The notes under the pieces were generated by a model. It had not been told where the DNA came from. It worked only from the letters and a program-made list of their open reading frames with translations, and searched no databases. A stretch of DNA of 64,000 nucleotides, from assembly GCA_965221125.1 (NCBI GenBank), contig CBDCRW010000007.1, positions 32,001 through 96,000 of the forward strand, read 5' to 3'. Origin of the DNA: Alphaproteobacteria bacterium (lineage in GTDB: Bacteria; Pseudomonadota; Alphaproteobacteria; UBA828). Positions within the stretch are counted from its first letter, which is position 1. Each line of letters opens with the position of its first letter. The position numbers and the translations under genes were made by a program. This document shows positions 30,817 to 57,204 of this stretch, piece by piece.

Positions 30817-32013
30817 TCACGCAGGCCCGCTCCGGTCACTCCCGCCCGGCATGATATCGGCGAAGATGCTGGCAGCCACCAGGGCCGCGGATTCCTTCAC
30901 CGAGTCCCGCGCCAGGTGCGCATACCGCGAGGTGGTCTGTATCTTGCGGTGACCCAGAAGCTTGCCGATCATCGTGAGGTCCTCGCCAAGCGCCAGGGCG
31001 CGCGACGCGAAGCTGTGACGCAGGTCATGAAGCCGCACGTCGTCGAGATCGGCGCGCTCCCTCACGCGATACCAGTAGTAGGCAATGTGCTTCTGCCGCT
31101 CGCCGGTCTCACGGCCCGCGATCACCCAGGGGTTGTCCGCAAGGCGCGGCAGCCCGGCCAGAACACGCGCCGCCGCCGGCGACAGCGGCACGATGCGAGG
31201 ACCGGTCTTGGAGTCGCGAAGCTGGATCTCGTTCCGGTGCAGCGCCACGTCGTCCCAGAGAAGCGTCAGCACCTCGCCGGACCGGCATCCGGTCAGCATC
31301 AGGAGCTTGATCGCCGCAGCCGCGTGAACCGGAACCCGGCCCTCGGCCTCGAGATCTTCCAGGGCCTGACCGAGACGGCGGAACTCGTCCTCGGTCAGAA
31401 AGCGCTCCAGCCGTCTCGTCGGGTTGCGCGTCACGAAGCGGCAGGGGTTGCTGCCGGCAGGCAGCAGGCCCCACGCCTCCGCCCGGTTCAGCATCCGCGA
31501 CAGCGCGCCCACCGTGTCGTTCGCAGCCACCGGCGTCTTGCGCAGGCGGTAGTGGAGCTCGGCAACGTGCTTGCGGTCGAGCTCGGCGATCGGCACCTTG
31601 CCCAGCTTCGGCAGGATGTGCCGCTCGATCGATTGCCTGTAGCCCTTGACCGTGTTCGGCTTGCAGCGAACCGCCACGTGCTCGCGGAGGTATCTATCCG
31701 CAAGCTCGGCTACCGTCGGCCCGCCGGCTGCGTCCCGCCCGGCCCCCGGCTCATCGCCCGCCTCGATGCGGGTGAGAACCACGGCGCCCTCCTGGCGCGC
31801 CTCGTCGGCAGAGATCACCCCGTGCCGGCCGATCGAGATCCGCTTCAGGCCCCGCGGGCCCTTGCGCTGCACCATATAGCTCTTGCACCCGTTGGGATAG
31901 ACCCGGACCCCGAAGCCCGGAAGCTCCCGGTCCCAGCACATGAACTCCTTCTCACCGGGCGTCAGTGCGTCGACCACCCGGTTGGACAGCGATCTCTTTT
32001 TCAGTCGCGGCAT
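30817..32013 (-). CDS. Tyrosine integrase with Arm-DNA-binding domain (subtype B)
   Basis: WDRELPGFGVRV, LTGCRSGE, DSKTG, LHDLRHSFAS, LLGHRKIQTTSRY. Confidence 0.93.
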   Translation of the reverse strand: MPRLKKRSLSNRVVDALTPGEKEFMCWDRELPGFGVRVYPNGCKSYMVQRKGPRGLKRISIGRHGVISADEARQEGAVVLTRIEAGDEPGAGRDAAGGPTVAELADRYLREHVAVRCKPNTVKGYRQSIERHILPKLGKVPIAELDRKHVAELHYRLRKTPVAANDTVGALSRMLNRAEAWGLLPAGSNPCRFVTRNPTRRLERFLTEDEFRRLGQALEDLEAEGRVPVHAAAAIKLLMLTGCRSGEVLTLLWDDVALHRNEIQLRDSKTGPRIVPLSPAAARVLAGLPRLADNPWVIAGRETGERQKHIAYYWYRVRERADLDDVRLHDLRHSFASRALALGEDLTMIGKLLGHRKIQTTSRYAHLARDSVKESAALVAASIFADIMPGGSDRSGPA

Positions 32014-49379: not shown

Positions 49380-50531
49380 ATGAGTCGGCAGGACGCATTC
49401 GATCGGATCGTGGCGGCGCTGCACGACGCCGCGTTCGACGATGCCCGGTGGCTCGCGGCATCCGCCCTGATCGACGACGCCTGCCGAATGAAGGGCAACG
49501 GGCTGGTGCACGGTGAGGGCCACACCCACGACGACATCGAAGTCTTCCTTGCGCGGCTCTGCCACCGCGGGGAACGGCGCGACGACCTGGAACGCGAATA
49601 CTTCGACATGTACCACCATGTGGATGAACGGCTGCCGCGCCTCAGGCAGCTCCCCGACCGCCGGCTCGTCCACGTGCGCTCCCTCTACACGGAGCAGGAG
49701 CTGAAGACATCGCCCACGTACAACGAGTGCCTGCTCCACGCCGAAGCGCAGAACGGCCTCAACCTGCGCATGGACGGACCGCACGGCTCGCGCATCGTCT
49801 GGCTGACCGCGGACCCTGTCGGCGCGGACGAATGGTCGTCCGATCAGACCGAGATGCTCGACCGTCTGATGCCGCATGTTCGCCAGTACGCGAGCGTGCG
49901 GCAGGTGTTGTCGGATGCAGGCGCGCTCGGCTCGTCGCTGGCCTCGCTGCTCGACAACACCGGGGCGGGGATCATCCACCTCGACCGGCGCGGCCGGATC
50001 GTCGCGGCGAACGACCGGGCCGGCGCGCTGCTGCGGCGGGGCTGCGGGCTGTCGGACACGGGCGGCTACCTGCAGGCCCGCCTGCCGCCGGACAATGCGC
50101 GCCTTCAGACGCTGCTGGCGCGCGCGCTGCCGCCGTTCGGCGCCCAGGGCGCCAGCGGGTCGATGACGCTGAGGCAGACGCCCGGCCAGCAGCGGCTCGT
50201 GCTGCACGTGAGCCCGGTGGCCGACCGGGACCTGGATTTCCGCACCCGCCGCGTCGCCGCGCTCGCGCTGGTCGTCGAGCCGGGGCGCCGGATGCGCATC
50301 GACCGGGGCCTGGTGGCGGCGATCCTGGGCCTCACGCCGTCGGAGACCGAGGTGGCGGTGCTGCTGGCCGAGGGCCACACCGTCAGCGATATCGCGCGGG
50401 CGACGGAGCGCAGGGAGAGCACGGTCCGCTGGCACATCAAGCACATCTTCAACAAGCACGGCTTCAATCGGCAATTGGAGCTGGTGCAACTGGTGCTGTC
50501 CCTGGCCACCATTCCGGAGTCGGGGCGCTGA
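49380..50531 (+). CDS. LuxR-type HTH regulator with N-terminal sensor (GAF/PAS-like) domains
   Basis: GIIHLDRRGRIV; LTPSETEVAVLLAEGHTVSDIA...TVRWHIKHIFNK; divergent from Slam gene. Confidence 0.85.
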   Translation: MSRQDAFDRIVAALHDAAFDDARWLAASALIDDACRMKGNGLVHGEGHTHDDIEVFLARLCHRGERRDDLEREYFDMYHHVDERLPRLRQLPDRRLVHVRSLYTEQELKTSPTYNECLLHAEAQNGLNLRMDGPHGSRIVWLTADPVGADEWSSDQTEMLDRLMPHVRQYASVRQVLSDAGALGSSLASLLDNTGAGIIHLDRRGRIVAANDRAGALLRRGCGLSDTGGYLQARLPPDNARLQTLLARALPPFGAQGASGSMTLRQTPGQQRLVLHVSPVADRDLDFRTRRVAALALVVEPGRRMRIDRGLVAAILGLTPSETEVAVLLAEGHTVSDIARATERRESTVRWHIKHIFNKHGFNRQLELVQLVLSLATIPESGR

Positions 50532-51035
50532 AGCCGTCGAGGAAATGCCGGCAGGTGCCGGGCACTTCAGCCGTCAATTTTCGCTCGGCAGCGGCGGCGG
50601 CATCCGCAGTTATTGATGGCCGCCGGCGGCAGAGTTTTCGGCCTTGTTCCGGACGCGGAATCGCGTTCGCGACCGCACAGTTTCCGCGCCGCATCGCCGC
50701 GGCCAGGCGCGCCACGTGCTCACGACCGGGCCGCTTGTCTCCCGCGCACGTGCGGACCCCGCCTATGGGGGCTTTACGCGCTCGGCACCACGACCTATGG
50801 TGGGAGACACAGGGCGAACACGCCAGGAAATCGATGGCAGCGGCCGGCCGTCGCCCTGATTGTTGCGCCTGTATCGAGAGCCAGGAGCCTGCCCGGTGGG
50901 CCGACGATCCGCAGCGCGTCTACGCCTTCGGCACGCCGCCGTGAGCCGCGCAGTTTGCGACCGCCGGGCGGCGCGGCCGCGCAATCGCCCGGATACGGAC
51001 GGCCCGCGCGGCGTCATCGGGCAAGGCCCCGGCGC

Positions 51036-52670
51036 ATGAACAGGCTTTACTACGGCGACTGCCTGGCGGTGATGGAGGAAATGCCGCCCGGCAGCGTCGA
51101 CCTGATCTACCTCGATCCGCCCTTCAACTCGAGCCGCGACTACAACGCGATCTACACGGACGAGACCGGCCGCCCCCTGCCGACGCAGATCGAGGCGTTC
51201 TGCGACACCTGGATCCTCGACGAGGACCGCGAACGCGCGATCCGCCAGATGCCGATCCTCATGCGCGAAGCCGGCATCGACGACGAGGTCGCGGAGTTCT
51301 GGCGCCTCTGGGTCAAGGCGCTGCGCAAGACGAACCCGCGCATGCTGGCCTATCTCTCCTACATGGTGCAGCGGCTGCTCCCCATGCGCGGGCTGCTGAA
51401 GGCGACCGGCTCCATCTACCTGCACTGCGACCCGACCGCCAGCCATTACATAAAGATCATGATGGACGCCATATTCGGGCACGAAAACTTCAGAAACGAG
51501 ATTACGTGGCAGCGCACGGAAAGTCACAACACGGCCGATCGCTACGGAAATATTGCCGACATACTGTTGTATTACGCAAAGTCCAGCCAAGCCATATGGA
51601 ACCCGCAGTATCAGGACTACGGCGACGCGCAGTTGAGCCGCTTCCGCCACATGGACGGCGACGGCCGCCGCTACAAGCTGGAGAACCTCACGGCCCCGCG
51701 GCCGAACTCGAATTCCGGCAAGTTCAGCTGGCGGGGCACGCTGCCGGGGCCCACGCGCGGGTGGGGCTACAACGTCGAGCAACTGGAGGCATGGTGGCAC
51801 GAGGGGCGCATCAGGACGAAAGCCGACGGCACGCCCCGGACCGACGGACTGAAGGTCTACCTGGACGAGACGCAGGGCAAACCGCTGCAGAACATATGGA
51901 CCGACATTTCCCGAATCCCCAATACGTCGTCGGAGCGGATGGGCTACGCAACGCAAAAGCCCTTGGCGCTGCTGGAGCGCGTCATCATGGCGAGTTCGGA
52001 ACCCGGAGATCTGGTCTTCGACCCGTTCTGCGGCTGCGCCACGACCATCGAAGCCGCGCACAGGCTGGGGCGGCGATGGATCGGCATCGACATCGCGATC
52101 CACGCAATAAAGCGCGTCGCAAAGGTGCGCCTGCAGGAGCGACTTAGGCTGGTCGAAGGCAGCGATTTCGAGATCAAGGGCATGCCGCGCGACATGGAAG
52201 GCGCGCGCGATCTTTGGAAGCACGACAAGTACCACTTTCAGAAGTGGGCCGTCGAACAGGTGGACGGATTTGTCACCGCGCGAAAGAGCGGCGACGGCGG
52301 CATAGACGGCCGCCTGTACTTCGCCATGCCGCAGGAAGATGCGTGGGAACGCGACCCGCTCCGTTCCATGGTGATCGAGGTGAAGGGCGGCACTAATGTC
52401 GGCATCGATGTCGTCCGCAATTTGCGCGGCATTCTGGAGCGCGAGGACGCGGAAATGGCGGGGCTGATCGTGCTGGAAGAACCTGGTCACAAGAAGCGCG
52501 CGAGCTTCGGCCGCGAGCTGGCATTCGCCGGCGACTTGACGGTGCACGGGACGACATACCCCCGCATGCAGCTTCTCACGGTCTCGGAGATTCTGGCCGG
52601 CAAGCGCTTCACGACGCCGAGCGCGGTGGGGCGCGGCTCCCGGCAGCAACCGCTCGCCCTGGAGCGCTAA
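51036..52670 (+). CDS. N6/N4 DNA methyltransferase fused to C-terminal Mrr-like endonuclease domain
   Basis: DLIYLDPPF, YATQKPLALLERVI, VFDPFCGCATT; C-term FQKWAV...DGGIDG...IEVKGG. Confidence 0.88.
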   Translation: MNRLYYGDCLAVMEEMPPGSVDLIYLDPPFNSSRDYNAIYTDETGRPLPTQIEAFCDTWILDEDRERAIRQMPILMREAGIDDEVAEFWRLWVKALRKTNPRMLAYLSYMVQRLLPMRGLLKATGSIYLHCDPTASHYIKIMMDAIFGHENFRNEITWQRTESHNTADRYGNIADILLYYAKSSQAIWNPQYQDYGDAQLSRFRHMDGDGRRYKLENLTAPRPNSNSGKFSWRGTLPGPTRGWGYNVEQLEAWWHEGRIRTKADGTPRTDGLKVYLDETQGKPLQNIWTDISRIPNTSSERMGYATQKPLALLERVIMASSEPGDLVFDPFCGCATTIEAAHRLGRRWIGIDIAIHAIKRVAKVRLQERLRLVEGSDFEIKGMPRDMEGARDLWKHDKYHFQKWAVEQVDGFVTARKSGDGGIDGRLYFAMPQEDAWERDPLRSMVIEVKGGTNVGIDVVRNLRGILEREDAEMAGLIVLEEPGHKKRASFGRELAFAGDLTVHGTTYPRMQLLTVSEILAGKRFTTPSAVGRGSRQQPLALER

Positions 52671-52962
52671 CCCGCAGGCTGAGCGCGCGGCGCAAACGAT
52701 CTGCCGCGCGCCGGACCCCGATGCACGATGCGTCGCGTGGGCCGGAGGCGTCCCCATCCGCGAATCCCCCGGTCGCGTGGCGGATTCAAGCCTGAAAGCC
52801 GGCGTGTCACGGGAATATTTCCCCGTCGTCGTCGTTTGGCGGGGCATTTCTCCTTGACGGCCGGGCCTGTGAGCGATAGGGAACGAACCGTTTGGTCCAT
52901 TCATGGGCGAGACGCAAGGCATCTGCATTGCGCGCACCGGCACCGCCCACCGTGCCCTGCGT

Positions 52963-53328
52963 GAGAGACGGACCCGCTTGGGCACCGTAACGGCGGTAGC
53001 CTGCCCGCTCTCTCGCCCGCGCCCCGCGCTCGCACCCCGGATCGAGGACGGCAAAGTGAGATACGGCAACGAACTTTTTTTGGGGTTTTTGCCGAGATAA
53101 GCCGAGACAAGCCGAGACAAGCCGAGACAAGGTGAGACAAGGTGAGACGGCACATCGCGGTCCACAGGCGCCCGGCCGCGCCACCGCGCTGCGCGCCTCT
53201 CCGTGCCTGTCGGCCGGACAGCGCCGCGCAGACCATGACCGTGGCGAGAAATGCGGGCCGGTCTCATGCCGCCATCCTGCCGCGAACTCCCCGCCCCGTT
53301 CACCGCACCATGGTCCGGGTGCCGGGAG
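52963..53328 (+). repeat. ~360-bp non-coding element with tandem GCCGAGACAA decamers (copy 2)
   Basis: Six 10-bp units at 53091-53150; homologous to 36292-36643. Confidence 0.85.
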
Positions 53329-53415
53329 GGAGGCACCGCCCTTTCCACTGGCGTCCCCCCTCCGCCCTTCAAGGGGGGAGGGGGCCAGGGGGAGGTGGGT
53401 GGTAAAATCCAGCGC

Positions 53416-53853
53416 ATGGTCAAACCGAGGACGCACCGCGCCCGAGGCTTGCGCAAGGACGCCACGGCGGCCGAGCGTCTCCTGTGGCGGGCCTTGCGGG
53501 ATGCGGCGCTCCCGGTGAGGATTCGCCGCCAGCACCCCATCGGGCGCTACATCGCGGACTTCGCCATTCCCGCGCGCAAGCTCGTCATCGAGATCGACGG
53601 CGGCCAGCACGTCACCGCCGCGCGCCGGGATGCCGCCCGGACGGGCAACCTGGAGGCGCGGGGCTGGCGCGTTATCCGTTTCTGGAACAACGACGTGACG
53701 GGCAACCTGGCCGGTGTGCTCGAGACCATCGTTGCTGAAATAGAAAGGAGATTATATACGAAGGTCACAATTCATCTCGTCTCGGACGAACGGCAATCGA
53801 AGATATCCTCGGGATTGACGCCCGGCCCCCTTTTGGTACACTCCCGGGCGTGA
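53416..53853 (+). CDS. DUF559 endonuclease-domain protein; 3' end replaced by IS1595 sequence from 53747
   Basis: ARGLRKDATAAERLLWRALR, RRQHPIGRYIADF, LVIEIDGGQH, GWRVIRFWNNDV. Confidence 0.85.
   Translation: MVKPRTHRARGLRKDATAAERLLWRALRDAALPVRIRRQHPIGRYIADFAIPARKLVIEIDGGQHVTAARRDAARTGNLEARGWRVIRFWNNDVTGNLAGVLETIVAEIERRLYTKVTIHLVSDERQSKISSGLTPGPLLVHSRA
53815..53842 (+). promoter_or_regulatory. Sigma70-like promoter 1
   Basis: TTGACG-16 bp-TACACT with TG extension. Confidence 0.55.
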
Positions 53854-53973
53854 TCATTGGAGTGGGTGGCGACGTGCTCGTTGACCGGTCGACGGGTTCC
53901 CTCGCCTTCGGAGGATCTCCCGTCCAACGCTGGTCCTCACCCTCCCCATCCCGTTCGTAACCTAAGTAGATAA

Positions 53974-54049
53974 TGGAGACCCGAGCCGGATTCGAACCGG
54001 CGTAAACGCCATTTCCAGGGACGCGCCTAACCACTCGAGCCATCGGGTC
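53974..54049 (-). tRNA. tRNA-like gene: Cys-type body with GGA (Ser) anticodon
   Basis: GACCCGA/TCGGGTC acceptor, U73, CCA; D-loop GAGTGGTTA; loop CTGGAAA; T-arm GCCGG-TTCGAAT-CCGGC; 76 nt. Confidence 0.8.
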
Positions 54050-54110
54050 TCCATCTATTTATCGGCGTTGGCACCCTCCCCTAAGTATTTGTTTTAGAAG
54101 AAAGTTCGTC

Positions 54111-54139
54111 TTGACGCCCGTCTCCAGACGTGTTACACT
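54111..54139 (+). promoter_or_regulatory. Sigma70-like promoter 2 (transposase)
   Basis: TTGACG-17 bp-TACACT with TG extension, upstream of AGGAGG RBS. Confidence 0.65.
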
Positions 54140-54165
54140 TCGGTCACAATTCAGGAGGATCGGGG

Positions 54166-55146
54166 ATGGGCAAGAGTTCACCGGGCAAGGGCGACCGCGA
54201 GGGCATCGGCCTCGTCACCCTGCTGCGGATGTTCCCCGACGACGAGGCAGCGCGGCGGTGGTTCGAGGAGCGGGTGTGGCCGGACGGCCCCCACTGCCCC
54301 CACTGCGGCAGCCTCAACGTCCAGGCCGGCATCAAGCACAAGACGATGACGCACCGGTGCCGCGACTGCTCCAACCGCCCGATGTTCAGCCTGCGGACCG
54401 GCACCGTCATGCAGGGCTCGAAGCTCGGCTACCAGACCTGGGCCATCGCGGTCTACCTGCTGACGACGAGCCTCAAGGGCACCAGCAGCATGAAGCTGCA
54501 TCGGGATCTTGAGATCACCCAAAAATCTGCTTGGCATCTGATGCATAGGCTCCGGAAATCGTTCGAGAACGACCCCGAGCCGTTCAAGGGTCCGGTGGAG
54601 GCGGACGAGACGTACATCGGCGGCAAGCGTAAGAATATGCACGCCAAGAAACGGCGGGAATTGAAGGGCCGGGGTGCCGTGGGTAAGACCGCCGTGGTCG
54701 GTGTTCGGGACCGTGACACCAAGCGCGTGAGCGCCGGGGTGGTGGAGGCGACCGATGGTCCCACGTTGCAGGGATTCGTGGCCGAGCGGGCCGCCGAGGG
54801 GACCACGGTCTATACCGACGAGGCGCGGGCGTACCAGGGCATGTCGTTCGCCCACGAGGCAGTTGCCCACAGCGTCGGGGAGTACGTCCGGGACCAGGCT
54901 CACACCAACGGGATGGAGAGCTTCTGGTCGATGCTCAAGCGCGGGTACGTCGGCACCTACCACAAGCTCAGCCCGAAGCACCTCGACCGGTACGTGACCG
55001 AGTTCGCGGGACGGCACAACGCCCGCGCCGCCGACACCCTCGATCAGATGACCGGCATCGTGACGGGAATGGTGGGGAAGCGGCTCCGGTACGCGGACCT
55101 GATCGCGGACAACGGACTGGAGTCGGGGGCGAAGCCGACTAAGTAG
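54166..55146 (+). CDS. IS1595-family transposase
   Basis: WPDGPHCPHCG...CRDC zinc ribbon, VEADETYIGG, VYTDE, HTNGMESFWSMLKRG, KHLDRYVTEF. Confidence 0.95.
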   Translation: MGKSSPGKGDREGIGLVTLLRMFPDDEAARRWFEERVWPDGPHCPHCGSLNVQAGIKHKTMTHRCRDCSNRPMFSLRTGTVMQGSKLGYQTWAIAVYLLTTSLKGTSSMKLHRDLEITQKSAWHLMHRLRKSFENDPEPFKGPVEADETYIGGKRKNMHAKKRRELKGRGAVGKTAVVGVRDRDTKRVSAGVVEATDGPTLQGFVAERAAEGTTVYTDEARAYQGMSFAHEAVAHSVGEYVRDQAHTNGMESFWSMLKRGYVGTYHKLSPKHLDRYVTEFAGRHNARAADTLDQMTGIVTGMVGKRLRYADLIADNGLESGAKPTK

Positions 55147-55151
55147 GATTC

Positions 55152-55367
55152 ATGGAAGAGAACGCCTTTTATCCCAAGACCGTGGACAAGCCTAGTCCTG
55201 CTAATTATCCGACCGAACAAGATTTCGCGCTTGCTCACAGAGAGTGGTTTGAATGTACCGTGCTTCCTGAGCAACCTGATTGGTGTAATTGGTGTCAGTC
55301 TGTGACGATGGATATTTCAACCGGGAAATTTCATCACAAAGATGGGTGTCCAAACTCAAGAGATTAG
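55152..55367 (+). CDS. Small hypothetical Cys/His protein (lower GC)
   Basis: ORF directly after transposase, WCNWC...HHKDGC; overlaps an opposite-strand ORF so uncertain. Confidence 0.35.
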   Translation: MEENAFYPKTVDKPSPANYPTEQDFALAHREWFECTVLPEQPDWCNWCQSVTMDISTGKFHHKDGCPNSRD

Positions 55368-55506
55368 TCTTGACGTCGTCCTTGTGACTACCCCACTGGA
55401 TCAGTAGGCGCGCCACAGCTTTGGTGAATACCTCGACCGACTTTACGTCATACGACTCCCGTTCACCCATGCCATCTCCTCCTGTTTTGATGGGTTGATC
55501 TGATAC

Positions 55507-56052
55507 TCACCGCAGCATCTGCTGCATCAGCCGCTGCAGGTTTACATGAGAGCGGTTGGTGCTGCCAGCGGGGCTCTCCCGCTGGTTCTTGTACGCGACC
55601 CACCGTCCCGAGCGATTTTGGCAGGCGAAGGCGTAGTTGAGGCGGTAGTTCTTCGCCCCCGCGGGCCACGAGCGGTAGCGGTAGTTCCAGCAGTACCCTC
55701 CCCGGGGCGTTCGGTAGAATCCCCCCACGATGCCGTCGACCTCCCAGCGGTACGGACCGTCATGCACCACGACGGGGAAGGGGACCACGACCTTGCGCGG
55801 GTCGGTGCCGGGGCCTCCCCAGCCGACGAGGTGCTCCTTGAAGCCGGTCTCGCCATCCCGGCTGTACCCCAGGAATCGCATCTGGCGGGACCGGTGACTC
55901 TCGCCCTGCCGCTCGTGGACCGTCCGAGCGGACGCGCCGGAAACGGGGGCGGGGGTGAACTGTGCCCCGCCGGCGACCACCCGAAGGTCCGGGGTGCAGG
56001 CGGCAACGGAGACGACCCCTGCCAGTAGGGTTATCGCGACGAGCCCTCTCAT
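55507..56052 (-). CDS. Putative lipoprotein cargo
   Basis: Hydrophobic leader with VAAC lipobox-like motif. Confidence 0.55.
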   Translation of the reverse strand: MRGLVAITLLAGVVSVAACTPDLRVVAGGAQFTPAPVSGASARTVHERQGESHRSRQMRFLGYSRDGETGFKEHLVGWGGPGTDPRKVVVPFPVVVHDGPYRWEVDGIVGGFYRTPRGGYCWNYRYRSWPAGAKNYRLNYAFACQNRSGRWVAYKNQRESPAGSTNRSHVNLQRLMQQMLR

Positions 56053-56054
56053 GG

Positions 56055-56546
56055 CTAAAACGCGATCGTGCTCTTGGTCCCGGTGCAGTGCCGGGTGTAG
56101 AGAATCTCCAGCGCGCGGCGCAAACGGTCCGGGTCCAAGTTGTACATCGGCAGGGTGACCCGCTTGTGGCTCCCCATCGAGACCCCGGATATGACGAGGC
56201 TGAGGTAGAGCAGATCGTTCTGCGGCTCGATGTCCGCCACGACATCGTCCCCGGCGAGAGTCATGACGAGGACCTGCCCGTTGTCGGGGAAGTAGCGGTA
56301 CTCGATCTCGATGAACTCGGGGTCGACGTTATTCCAGTAGATTCGGACGTAGCCGCCCTTGCTGTCGTCCATGCCGGAGACGCACGCGCTCCGGTCGTAG
56401 ATGCGGGCGGTGGCGACCCCGTTGGCCTCCCGGAGGGGGTCCCCCGTCGTCAGGTAGTTGGTAAGCTGCTGGAAGGCGTCTCCCTGCCCCGCCTCGGCCC
56501 CGGTTGCCACCATGACTGCGGCGAGCAGTATCATCGACCATCTCAT
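56055..56546 (-). CDS. Putative secreted protein cargo
   Basis: MRWSMILLAAVMVATGAEA signal peptide; adjacent to 55507..56052. Confidence 0.55.
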   Translation of the reverse strand: MRWSMILLAAVMVATGAEAGQGDAFQQLTNYLTTGDPLREANGVATARIYDRSACVSGMDDSKGGYVRIYWNNVDPEFIEIEYRYFPDNGQVLVMTLAGDDVVADIEPQNDLLYLSLVISGVSMGSHKRVTLPMYNLDPDRLRRALEILYTRHCTGTKSTIAF

Positions 56547-56802
56547 CCCACACCCCACTCCGTCGCCCCGGTCCCGGCGGGCGCCGGGCCGTTGCAAGCA
56601 ACACACGGGTTAGCGTGGGAAGCCCCGCCTATTCGTCCGGGACGAGGGAGCTACCCCCGACCCTGCACGGACTCTTGTATTCGAGCGGGCGACCCGACTC
56701 AGCGGGTACCCGTGTCTTGCTTGCGGAAACGAGCGTAGGGGAGAGGACGCCGGACGGTCAACCCGACTTGACTACCGGGCGGACGGCGACCATCAAGAGA
56801 AC

Positions 56803-56997
56803 GTGGATCAGGAACCCCGCGAGGACCCGAAACCCCCCTCCTGCCTCACGTGCCAGCACTGGTGGCCGCGGGCGGAGGGCGGGGGAACGTGCGGCAAGGT
56901 GATCGGGACCCAGAACGTCACCGAGGCGTACGACTGGTGCCGTGAGCACCAACCCCGGGGCCTGCGCGGGGTGGCCCACAAACAAACGACGTGGTAG
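56803..56997 (+). CDS. Small Cys-rich protein
   Basis: CLTCQHW...GTCG...DWCREH four-Cys pattern. Confidence 0.45.
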   Translation: MDQEPREDPKPPSCLTCQHWWPRAEGGGTCGKVIGTQNVTEAYDWCREHQPRGLRGVAHKQTTW

Positions 56998-57010
56998 GAG
57001 CGAAACCGCC

Positions 57011-57172
57011 GTGAAGGACGAGTCGAAGCCTCCCGTCGTCCGAATCAAACCCTCCAGCTATCAGCCGCCCAAGGCCGAACTGGAAGAGGACGTACGCATC
57101 GACGCCACCCCGGAGGAACTGGCGCGTGCGGTGCTGCGTCAGGTGAGAGTGGTCAAGGACCCGGAGGCGTGA
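57011..57172 (+). CDS. Small hypothetical protein at IS end
   Basis: AGGAG RBS, GTG start, PSSYQPPKAELEEDVRIDATPEELARAVL. Confidence 0.5.
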   Translation: MKDESKPPVVRIKPSSYQPPKAELEEDVRIDATPEELARAVLRQVRVVKDPEA

Positions 57173-57204
57173 CCGGGCAATTGTGATCTAGGTATATAAT
57201 CTCC

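Follow-up and report, generated by a model that had tools for sequence, protein, structure and literature searches.

A tRNA-like gene with a cysteine-type body and a GGA anticodon loop

The 64,000-nucleotide stretch of alphaproteobacterial DNA analyzed here (hereafter, the window; positions 32,001 to 96,000 of contig CBDCRW010000007.1, assembly GCA_965221125.1, lineage UBA828) contains an insertion sequence (IS) of the IS1595 family that carries a small tRNA-like gene next to its transposase gene. A single tRNA is called by ARAGORN in the window, a 76-nt gene on the minus strand (53974-54049) labelled Ser(GGA). Rfam also yields a single match, to the tRNA family RF00005 (53977-54049, minus strand), with a score of 38.9 bits, which exceeds the gathering score of 29 and is well below the scores of two host tRNAs in the retrieved loci (58.7 and 70.2 bits). 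Read on the minus strand, the gene consists of an acceptor stem GACCCGA/UCGGGUC, with U8 and G9 present, a D arm that keeps G18G19, an anticodon stem CGUCC/UGGCG with a non-pairing C31·U39, an anticodon loop CUGGAAA (with U33 and A37) that includes the GGA anticodon (54016..54014), a variable loop of 5 nt, a cysteine-type T arm (GCCGG-UUCGAAU-CCGGC) and U73 followed by an encoded CCA at the 3' end. The ARAGORN and Rfam calls and the minus-strand reading bear out the initial annotation of this locus, which had described a 76-nt cloverleaf with U73 and a short variable loop, and had noted the loop CUGGAAA (GGA) together with a C-U mismatch closing the anticodon stem. A bulged U in the D stem, a point absent from that annotation, has to be added, and both G18G19 and the T-loop elements are intact.

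The gene scores above the RF00005 threshold, as a canonical elongator tRNA would, and lacks the free discriminator and CCA as well as the regular anticodon and D stems of such a tRNA. It shares U73 with tRNA-Cys, without the GCA anticodon, and has neither the long variable arm nor the G73 of bacterial tRNA-Ser, given its 5-nt variable loop and U73. When a 106-nt stretch was folded with RNAfold (-41.6 kcal/mol, z -2.6; 3 of 200 shuffles were equally good), a long closing stem was formed and the interior showed no cloverleaf, so that the cloverleaf rests on ARAGORN and Rfam. The anticodon is GGA, and not GCA, also in contigs built from the reads of two runs of one sample, which cover positions 53745-54300 with 0 differences; GGA is therefore not an assembly error. 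This sample is probably the one from which the assembly was derived, and hence the agreement is not independent support.

The source genome (G000; 7 contigs, 4.58 Mb, 68-70% G+C), which has a permuted tmRNA as in alphaproteobacteria, encodes a tRNA-Cys of 74 nt with GCA and U73 (C4 c47324-47397) and four ordinary class-II tRNA-Ser genes of 88-93 nt with G73, one of which reads GGA. The tRNA-like gene is 78% identical to the host tRNA-Cys(GCA), with a near-identical T arm, a similar D loop and U73-CCA in both genes, but differs in its GGA anticodon, the unpaired 31:39 position, the bulged D stem and the sequence of the acceptor stem. The D loop had been described as cysteine-like, which holds as far as the similarity to the host tRNA-Cys goes, but by our reading the D arm of the host tRNA-Ser(GGA) is an equally close or closer match.

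Pairing of the leader and trailer

The acceptor stem of the tRNA-like gene continues into the flanking sequence. The 5' arm of the closing stem (54043..54054, minus strand), which consists of the leader AUGGA and acceptor positions 1-7, and the 3' arm (53973..53984, minus strand), which consists of acceptor positions 66-72 and U73-C-C-A-U77, are 12 nt each and were found to be 100% complementary in a complementarity search, which agrees with the perfect 12-bp stem between the 5' leader and UCCAU proposed initially. The extension, which we call the clamp, comprises 5 Watson-Crick pairs past the acceptor stem, from A-1:U73 to A-5:U77, and a possible additional G·U pair. We tabulated leader/trailer pairing for all 56 ARAGORN calls of the source genome, with G·U pairs counted. 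Both copies of the tRNA-like gene (see below) have 6 extra closing pairs, whereas 53 of the other calls have 0-3 and a single doubtful one, a 100-nt 'Arg' call with a poor acceptor stem, has 4; the host tRNA-Cys has 2, compared with 5-6 in the tRNA-like gene. The leader/trailer pairing of this gene thus exceeds chance. The descriptive core of the initial annotation, a cysteine-type body combined with a GGA loop and an extended acceptor stem, is sustained.

The IS1595-family element that carries the gene

The tRNA-like gene is located within an IS1595-family transporter IS of 3,458 bp (53747..57204, plus strand), which was delimited by its inverted repeats, by the target duplication of a second copy in contig C5 and by an empty site. 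The left inverted repeat GGAGATTATATACGAAGGTCACAATT (53747..53772, plus strand) has the end in common with sister elements in genomes G014, G003 and G004, and the right one (57179..57204, minus strand) matches the left repeat in 23 of 26 positions. The end sequence GGAGATTATATAC lies at 53747 and its inverted copy ends at 57204, with 0 chance matches expected. The second copy, 100% identical to the first, is found at C5:3354-6811, flanked by an 8-bp direct repeat AATAGAAA; it belongs to a repeat of at least 6.8 kb (window positions 50394-57204 and C5:1-6811, 100% identity) that holds a methylase gene, a DUF559 gene and the IS, and that stops exactly at the right inverted repeat, its left limit being hidden by the contig end. 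The empty site comes from a 480-nt sponge metagenome contig in which the end of the DUF559 gene runs straight into the right flank of the C5 copy. The copy in the window has a different right flank and no target duplication; a search for a surrogate left end to account for the lack of this duplication found none. The arrangement could stem from duplication of the flank by the IS or from the assembly.

The transposase (326 aa; 54166..55146, plus strand) contains a DDE domain (PF12762, 1.7e-40) and a zinc ribbon (PF12760, 1.2e-9), and its relatives are labelled 'IS1595 family transposase' by their sources. The zinc-ribbon DDE transposase, the inverted repeats and the 8-bp target duplication are all characteristic of this family. 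The gene is preceded by a conserved control region (54065..54165, plus strand) with an AGGAGG ribosome-binding site and a promoter-like site found by a consensus scan (TTGACG-17-TACACT, 54111-54139, plus strand). The tRNA-like gene lies 227 bp inside the left end of the IS and points away from the transposase. That it is IS-borne, as had been suggested, is established by the inverted repeats, the target duplication at C5 and the empty site.

Relatives of the gene and conservation of its fold

A 151-nt query produced matches in 9 of 61 related genomes, G000 included. Among 7 loci that were retrieved, 6 are ordinary tRNA-Cys(GCA) genes and one is a GGA gene of 75 nt in G019, a genome of the same genus. 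The GGA-type pattern is present in 2 of the 44 genomes of the family, and a looser pattern, applied to one genome per species across 185,579 species, recovered 10 loci, with an ARAGORN tRNA at the match in only 2 of these, namely G019 again and a 71-nt GGA tRNA in the tRNA array of an unrelated metagenome-assembled genome (MAG). The tRNA-like gene is therefore rare. In a plasmid collection, the tRNA-like region had no match, and a 1.5-kb query from the IS matched one record, over 8% of the query and inside the transposase.

The G019 copy is 74% identical to the window gene and shares with it the loop CUGGAAA, the unpaired 31:39 position (U·U in G019), U73, the upstream motif GCCGAUAAAU and the downstream motif CUACUUAGG. 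Its anticodon arm is one position longer, with five pairs and U·U compared to four pairs and C·U in the window gene. Unlike the window gene, it is not adjacent to a transposase and is located approximately 430 nt downstream of a tRNA-Thr(GGT) gene at a synteny break. A second relative is a variant, known as a list of differences, in a 178-nt sponge metagenome contig that covers positions 53934-54110 with 12 differences, none of them in the anticodon. Neither relative has GCA; both keep GGA. With the contigs built from reads in agreement, the GCA that the initial annotation had named as a refutation was thus not encountered.

All 4 of the listed changes of the metagenome variant that fall within the clamp and the tRNA keep the pairing: those at 54043 and 53984 turn A7-U66 into G-C, the one at 53985 turns G49-C65 into G·U, and the one at 54054 (T>C) turns A-5:U77 into G·U, on the tRNA strand only. 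Because both single-sided changes would give A·C on the plus strand, selection fits a minus-strand RNA that includes the extension. A similar picture emerges from a pair-by-pair comparison, tabulated by script, of the window gene, the G019 copy and G004-a, a cysteine-type gene of the G004 sister element described in the next section. Extension positions -5 to -1 form pairs in each of the three genes, and two of these pairs have changed on both sides (A-U/G-C and U-A/C-G); 4 of the 7 acceptor pairs and 1 of the 5 T-stem pairs also show changes on both sides with pairing kept. The non-pairs in the acceptor stem are G4·G69 in G019 and A1·C72 in G004-a. U73 is kept in all three genes, and CCA is not conserved at the 3' end among the relatives (CCG in G019; GCGACC in a second G004 gene, G004-b). 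In this small sample, the stems do not decay without compensation, as would be expected among copies of a pseudogene. In this lineage, the substitutions leave the cloverleaf, the clamp and the CUGGAAA loop intact, and they can be understood only in terms of RNA pairing on the tRNA strand. The decaying pseudo-tRNA that the initial annotation had listed among its options is disfavoured by these structure-preserving substitutions in two diverged relatives.

A cargo slot in sister elements

DNA of the transposase region has matches in 22 of the 49 genomes of the order (G000 included) and in 17 of the 20 other genomes of the genus, and the IS end motif, with one mismatch allowed, is present in 15 of the 21 genus genomes. 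The sister elements in G014, G003 and G004 have the exact end GGAGATTATATAC, a transposase region 76-78% identical to that of the window element and perfect 8-bp target duplications (CAATTTAG, AAATGAAT and CAAAATTG). Between this end and the promoter region, tRNA-type Rfam matches were detected in G000, G003 and G004 but not in G014. Thus, the stretch that separates the left inverted repeat from the control region of the transposase is a slot where tRNA-derived units sit. The slot of G004 contains two such genes. G004-a is of the cysteine type, with an 8-nt loop CCGGCAAU that lacks U33 and with closing arms GGUGGA/UCCACC, whereas G004-b is closest to the host tRNA-Arg and has the loop UUGACUA, G73, no CCA and 8-9 extra pairs. 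The G003 slot gene is a class-II, Ser/Sec-like gene with the loop UUGCGAA and about 13 closing pairs; the 'tRNA-Sec' label that Rfam assigns to it was set aside as unspecific, given that the RF01852 cut-off is also passed by ordinary tRNA-Ser here. The slot of G014 contains small ORFs and no tRNA-type gene. As a side observation, the part of this slot that matches window positions 53773-54078 (L161) includes a possible minus-strand ORF for a 40-aa hydrophobic peptide shortly after the CGATAAATAG motif, with no clear ribosome-binding site.

Folding gives closing stems of approximately 12-16 pairs for all five genes of this kind (those of the window and G019, G004-a, G004-b and the G003 gene), all of which have 5-9 extra leader-trailer pairs that cover both the discriminator and the position of CCA. 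The window gene has a conserved motif CGAUAAAUAG (54055..54064, minus strand) immediately 5' of its clamp, by its sequence a candidate -10-like element for leftward transcription. The motif adjoins 4 of the 5 clamps (window, G019, G004-a and G003), is unchanged in the 178-nt metagenome variant, where 6 bases just upstream differ, and persists in G014, where the tRNA-like gene is missing and a small ORF follows the motif.

Across 26 loci of the genus around inverted repeats, Rfam found tRNA-type matches inside elements only in G003 and G004, and one further match is a host tRNA located 252 bp outside the element. In four minimal relatives, the end, the promoter and the ATG all fit within approximately 90 bp. 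A scan of 401 genomes of the class with a 20-nt control-region motif (up to 3 mismatches) found, beyond the two exact matches in G000, only matches with 2-3 mismatches, which were comparable to the scattered matches of a reversed-pattern control, in a sample that included only 3 other genomes of the same family. Control of the transposase mRNA through kissing loops was also considered and rejected: in four sister elements, there is no matching complementarity or covariation between the anticodon loops and the 5' leaders of the transposase.

Other tRNAs associated with IS1595 elements

Several tRNA genes without a clamp are located downstream of transposase genes of this family. Outside the window, G000 contains a second IS1595-family element (C7:561670-564813) with a degraded transposase, inverted repeats GGGAATTACATAC.../GGGATTTATATAC... 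and an 8-bp duplication AAAAAAAT, which includes a 91-nt Ser-type tRNA gene (C7 c563753-563843) with G73, a long variable arm and the loop CUAGGCA, that is, an AGG (Pro) anticodon. An element of the same family with a perfect 8-bp duplication TTTCAAAG on contig C102 of G020 (L036:351-2523) contains an 88-nt Ser-type tRNA gene (L036 c1165-1252), also with G73, whose canonical loop CUGUUAA has a GUU (Asn) anticodon; a search of the genus's 20 other genomes at E <= 1e-6 gave no homologue of this gene. A third case is an 87-nt class-II tRNA with A73, CCA and the loop UUUGGCA (anticodon UGG) on two metagenome contigs (L115:3272-3358 and L116:3476-3562), approximately 35 nt past the end of a related IS1595 transposase gene and on the opposite strand; the contigs end soon after the tRNA, so that it is only a possible member of the IS. 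This tRNA belongs to a set of 59 metagenome loci with relatives of the transposase (51-68% amino-acid identity). ARAGORN detected tRNAs in 2 of the 59 loci, which represent one element, a T-loop scan added none, and Rfam, run on 20 of the 59, found only that same tRNA. In every IS1595-associated tRNA that we have seen, the anticodon does not fit the body. The gene in the window belongs to a small but recurring set of tRNA-derived cargo genes found in the IS1595 elements of a single genus.

Comparison with known systems

IS1595 transporter ISs, as classified in ISfinder, carry passenger genes between their ends, and to our knowledge the described passengers are protein genes. The element in the window resembles them in its zinc-ribbon DDE transposase, inverted repeats, 8-bp AT-rich duplications and extra genes between the ends, and differs in that the passenger beside the transposase promoter is a tRNA-derived RNA gene. 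A literature search that did not extend to subscription journals returned no paper describing tRNA cargo in IS1595 elements and none that pairs an allo-tRNA with a transposase.

Phage and plasmid tRNA genes include some with altered anticodon loops, and the Streptomyces tRNA-ProX family naturally mistranslates. These too are tRNA genes on mobile DNA, sometimes with odd loops or with a mismatch between identity and anticodon, but they reside on phages, plasmids and chromosomes rather than in a simple IS, and are expressed and charged, whereas the present gene is a predicted one. Leader-trailer helices are familiar from the stalks of pre-rRNA, which are cut by RNase III. In such processing helices, as in the clamp, a structured RNA gains a longer terminal helix through pairing of its flanks, and evolution keeps this pairing; an extended acceptor stem is also reported for the MALAT1 tRNA-like element (PMC8457004). 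The extension in our case differs in being short (5-6 pairs, up to 8-9 in G004-b), in its IS setting and in being a predicted helix.

A close parallel is with the allo-tRNAs, which, according to Mukai et al. (Nucleic Acids Res 2017, PMC5389517), are rare and patchy tRNAs whose anticodon does not match the identity of the body, some of them adjoining transposon-related or toxin-antitoxin genes, and among which the authors suggest that some non-canonical tRNAs are not used for translation. The gene in the window is likewise tRNA-shaped and rare and combines mismatched body and anticodon. However, allo-tRNAs have an 8/4 or 9/3 branch totalling 12 pairs and a Ser-type long variable arm, whereas the present gene has a 7/5 branch with 5-6 extra pairs, a cysteine-type body and a short variable loop, and is shown to lie within an IS that has inverted repeats and makes target duplications. 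The allo/Sec layout is resembled only by the sister gene of G003.

Possible functions of the tRNA-like gene

We consider it about an even bet (probability of roughly 0.5) that the tRNA-like gene is an RNA gene maintained as a passenger and fitted with a leader-trailer clamp, and that its product is more likely a poorly chargeable tRNA mimic than an efficient decoder. Under this explanation, a tRNA-Cys-derived gene with a GGA loop would occupy the fixed cargo slot of an IS1595 element and would be transcribed leftward from the conserved intergenic region, and the transcript would fold into an L-shaped tRNA-like RNA with its ends zipped together. The clamp might then be a portable signal for end definition or stability, a reading suggested by the hidden discriminator and CCA position and by the lack of conservation of CCA; it could be cut by RNase P or by an RNase III-type enzyme, or might merely block exonucleases. 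The product would most likely engage the tRNA-binding machinery as a mimic that is poorly charged. A mimic is favoured over a decoder because of the unpaired 31:39 position, the bulged D stem, the longer anticodon arm of G019, the loop of G004-a without U33 and the dependence of CysRS on the GCA anticodon; the low Rfam score and the variable 3' end, which is not CCA in every relative, also count against efficient decoding.

Several points weigh against this interpretation. A conserved 7-nt loop with U33 and A37 is also what would be expected of a decoding tRNA, and the RNA is not needed for transposition, since the G014 element transposed without it. The covariation comes from three or four sequences only, one of them available as a difference list, and the A1·C72 non-pair of G004-a would be G·U on the opposite strand, so that the strand evidence for the outer stem is not unanimous. 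On the minus strand, no sigma-70-type promoter emerged from the consensus scan, which called two such sites on the plus strand, one of which leads into the antisense of the tRNA-like gene. Finally, the role as a mimic is one that we infer.

An alternative that we regard as possible, if somewhat doubtful, is a working mistranslating tRNA, from which the leader would be removed and which would be trimmed to CCA, charged by CysRS via U73 and used to read UCC/UCU codons as cysteine, with IS1595 elements spreading such cargo. This is in line with the canonical loop CUGGAAA (U33, A37), identical in the window gene, G019 and the metagenome variant, with U73 in all three cysteine-type genes and with the intact G18G19 and T-loop elements. 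The body and the anticodon are mismatched in every IS1595-borne tRNA (the window gene, G004-a, G004-b, the G003 gene and the AGG and GUU genes), and a class-II UGG tRNA lies beside a metagenomic transposase. The strongest argument comes from the Ser-type AGG and GUU cargo inside elements with perfect 8-bp duplications: SerRS ignores the anticodon, and the Ser-type cargo tRNAs are therefore plausible mistranslators. For the gene in the window, by contrast, CysRS depends on the GCA anticodon in addition to U73, as known from the identity literature on E. coli, and hence the C35G change should strongly cut charging. The irregular D stem, the 31:39 mismatch and the 38.9-bit score, the divergent anticodon arms of G019 (longer) and G004-a (8-nt loop, no U33) and the masking of U73 and of a CCA that relatives do not conserve speak against this alternative too. 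In its favour, activity in E. coli is documented for allo-tRNAs whose anticodons are non-cognate, with links to transposon-related genes in some cases (PMC5389517). More broadly, we advance with some reserve the possibility that IS1595 transporter ISs of this genus are vehicles for anticodon-swapped tRNAs which, if expressed and charged, would constitute a mobile module for mistranslation or recoding, with the clamp as a portable maturation signal; the class would, by sequence, span cysteine-type bodies with serine or four-base loops and Ser-type bodies with Pro, Asn and Arg anticodons. A captured host tRNA copy devoid of function, in which the clamp and the compensations reflect history or gene conversion with host tRNA-Cys genes, is unlikely. 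The rarity of the gene (2 of 44 genomes of the family; one other species among 185,579), the transposition of the G014 element that lacks it, and the low score and irregular D arm would all be accounted for, but the pairing survives 4 of the 4 listed changes in the clamp and tRNA of the metagenome variant as well as several both-sided pair changes among the window gene, G019 and G004-a. Moreover, the derived loop and the flanking motifs are common to the relatives, which therefore diverged later than the anticodon change, and five different tRNA bodies have all gained a clamp that is absent from host tRNAs.

Two further explanations place the function on the DNA or on the other strand. A terminator or insulator on the plus strand, in which the reverse complement of the clamp together with CUAUUUAUC would halt transcripts that enter from outside or start at the upstream site ahead of the transposase promoter, seems improbable. 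The 12 outer pairs are all Watson-Crick and form on either strand, the stem is followed on the plus strand by the T-rich CTATTTATC in 4 of 5 slot genes, the promoter-like site at 53815-53842 points toward the stem, and in G004-a it is only on the plus strand that every pair of the outer stem forms. The terminator scan, however, did not call this stem, which encloses a loop of 58 nt, and the U tract is weak and missing in G004-b; the G·U pairs of the inner stems and the two single-sided changes of the variant become A·C on the plus strand, and it would not be explained why the insert is always a full tRNA fold. The least probable explanation, which we consider very unlikely, is a site acting at the DNA level, that is, an integrase attachment site or landing pad, or a hairpin used in swapping cassettes in the slot. 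tRNA genes are classic targets of integrases, the different tRNA-derived units at the same position in sister ISs resemble cassette exchange, and the orphan G019 copy lies some 430 nt downstream of tRNA-Thr at the synteny break. Yet neither the IS nor the neighbourhood of the G019 copy contains an integrase gene, the partial second tRNA end that integration would produce was not seen, and the G·U-type changes fit RNA and not DNA pairing. The integrase landing pad that had been proposed initially thus finds no support, with no integrase or att-type junction in sight and with single-sided changes that agree with RNA pairing and not with DNA. Of the four functions offered in the initial annotation, a mistranslating tRNA or a decoy may still apply.

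ISs are usually thought to carry a transposase only or, at most, protein-coding passengers. Here, in a family of simple ISs, we find RNA genes derived from tRNAs time and again at one fixed position next to the promoter of the transposase. Should these RNAs be active, altered decoding or tRNA mimics could pass from one genome to another by way of ISs, at the smallest scale on which DNA is mobile. Even without decoding, an RNA that is maintained, has the shape of a tRNA and is masked at its acceptor end would represent a new kind of IS accessory RNA.

Other features of the element and additional observations

The remainder of the IS encodes two passenger ORFs of 181 and 183 aa (55507..56606, minus strand), which belong to no Pfam family and of which the 183-aa one is also present in the G014 element, and a small ORF near the right end (56942..57172, plus strand) that is conserved in the G014 and G004 elements. 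The second promoter-like site from the consensus scan (TTGACG-16-TACACT; 53815..53842, plus strand), which faces the tRNA-like gene from its antisense side, resembles a degenerate second copy of the region around the transposase promoter. Immediately outside the element, a gene for a DUF559 endonuclease-like protein (53251-53853) has its domain end at about 53743, with the IS inserted at 53747, so that the ORF reads into the IS. Directly upstream of it is an N6/N4 DNA methylase gene (51027-52670; PF01555, 5.1e-41) with a long C-terminal extension that has no Pfam name.

The sister IS in G004 (L163) is 5.0 kb long; a second transposase gene (382 aa) is nested within it, as is a 203-aa ORF whose N-terminus is putatively GIY-YIG/T5orf172-like. 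On contig C18 of G006 (L074:181-236), an Rfam match to DUF3800-VI RNA (37.6 bits; gathering score 35) is located near an IS1595-type inverted repeat.

Two class-I GGA tRNAs of unrelated sequence were observed on mobile-looking DNA, one on a viral contig (L170:291-365) and the other in a MAG tRNA array (L018:1971-2041); in the viral tRNA, the base that ARAGORN places at the discriminator is U, and the closing stem is 2 pairs longer. Elsewhere in G000, an 88-nt copy of the tRNA-Ser(CGA) type (C3:534997-535084) has a 6-nt anticodon loop, with one A fewer than the host gene, and may be a pseudo-tRNA or a homopolymer error. An insertion of approximately 1.45 kb with a long minus-strand ORF (C5:331432-332887) is located 163 bp downstream of a tRNA-Thr(GGT) gene and interrupts a stretch that is contiguous in G019; replication-protein-like fragments are found further on, and these surroundings suggest an island hot spot.

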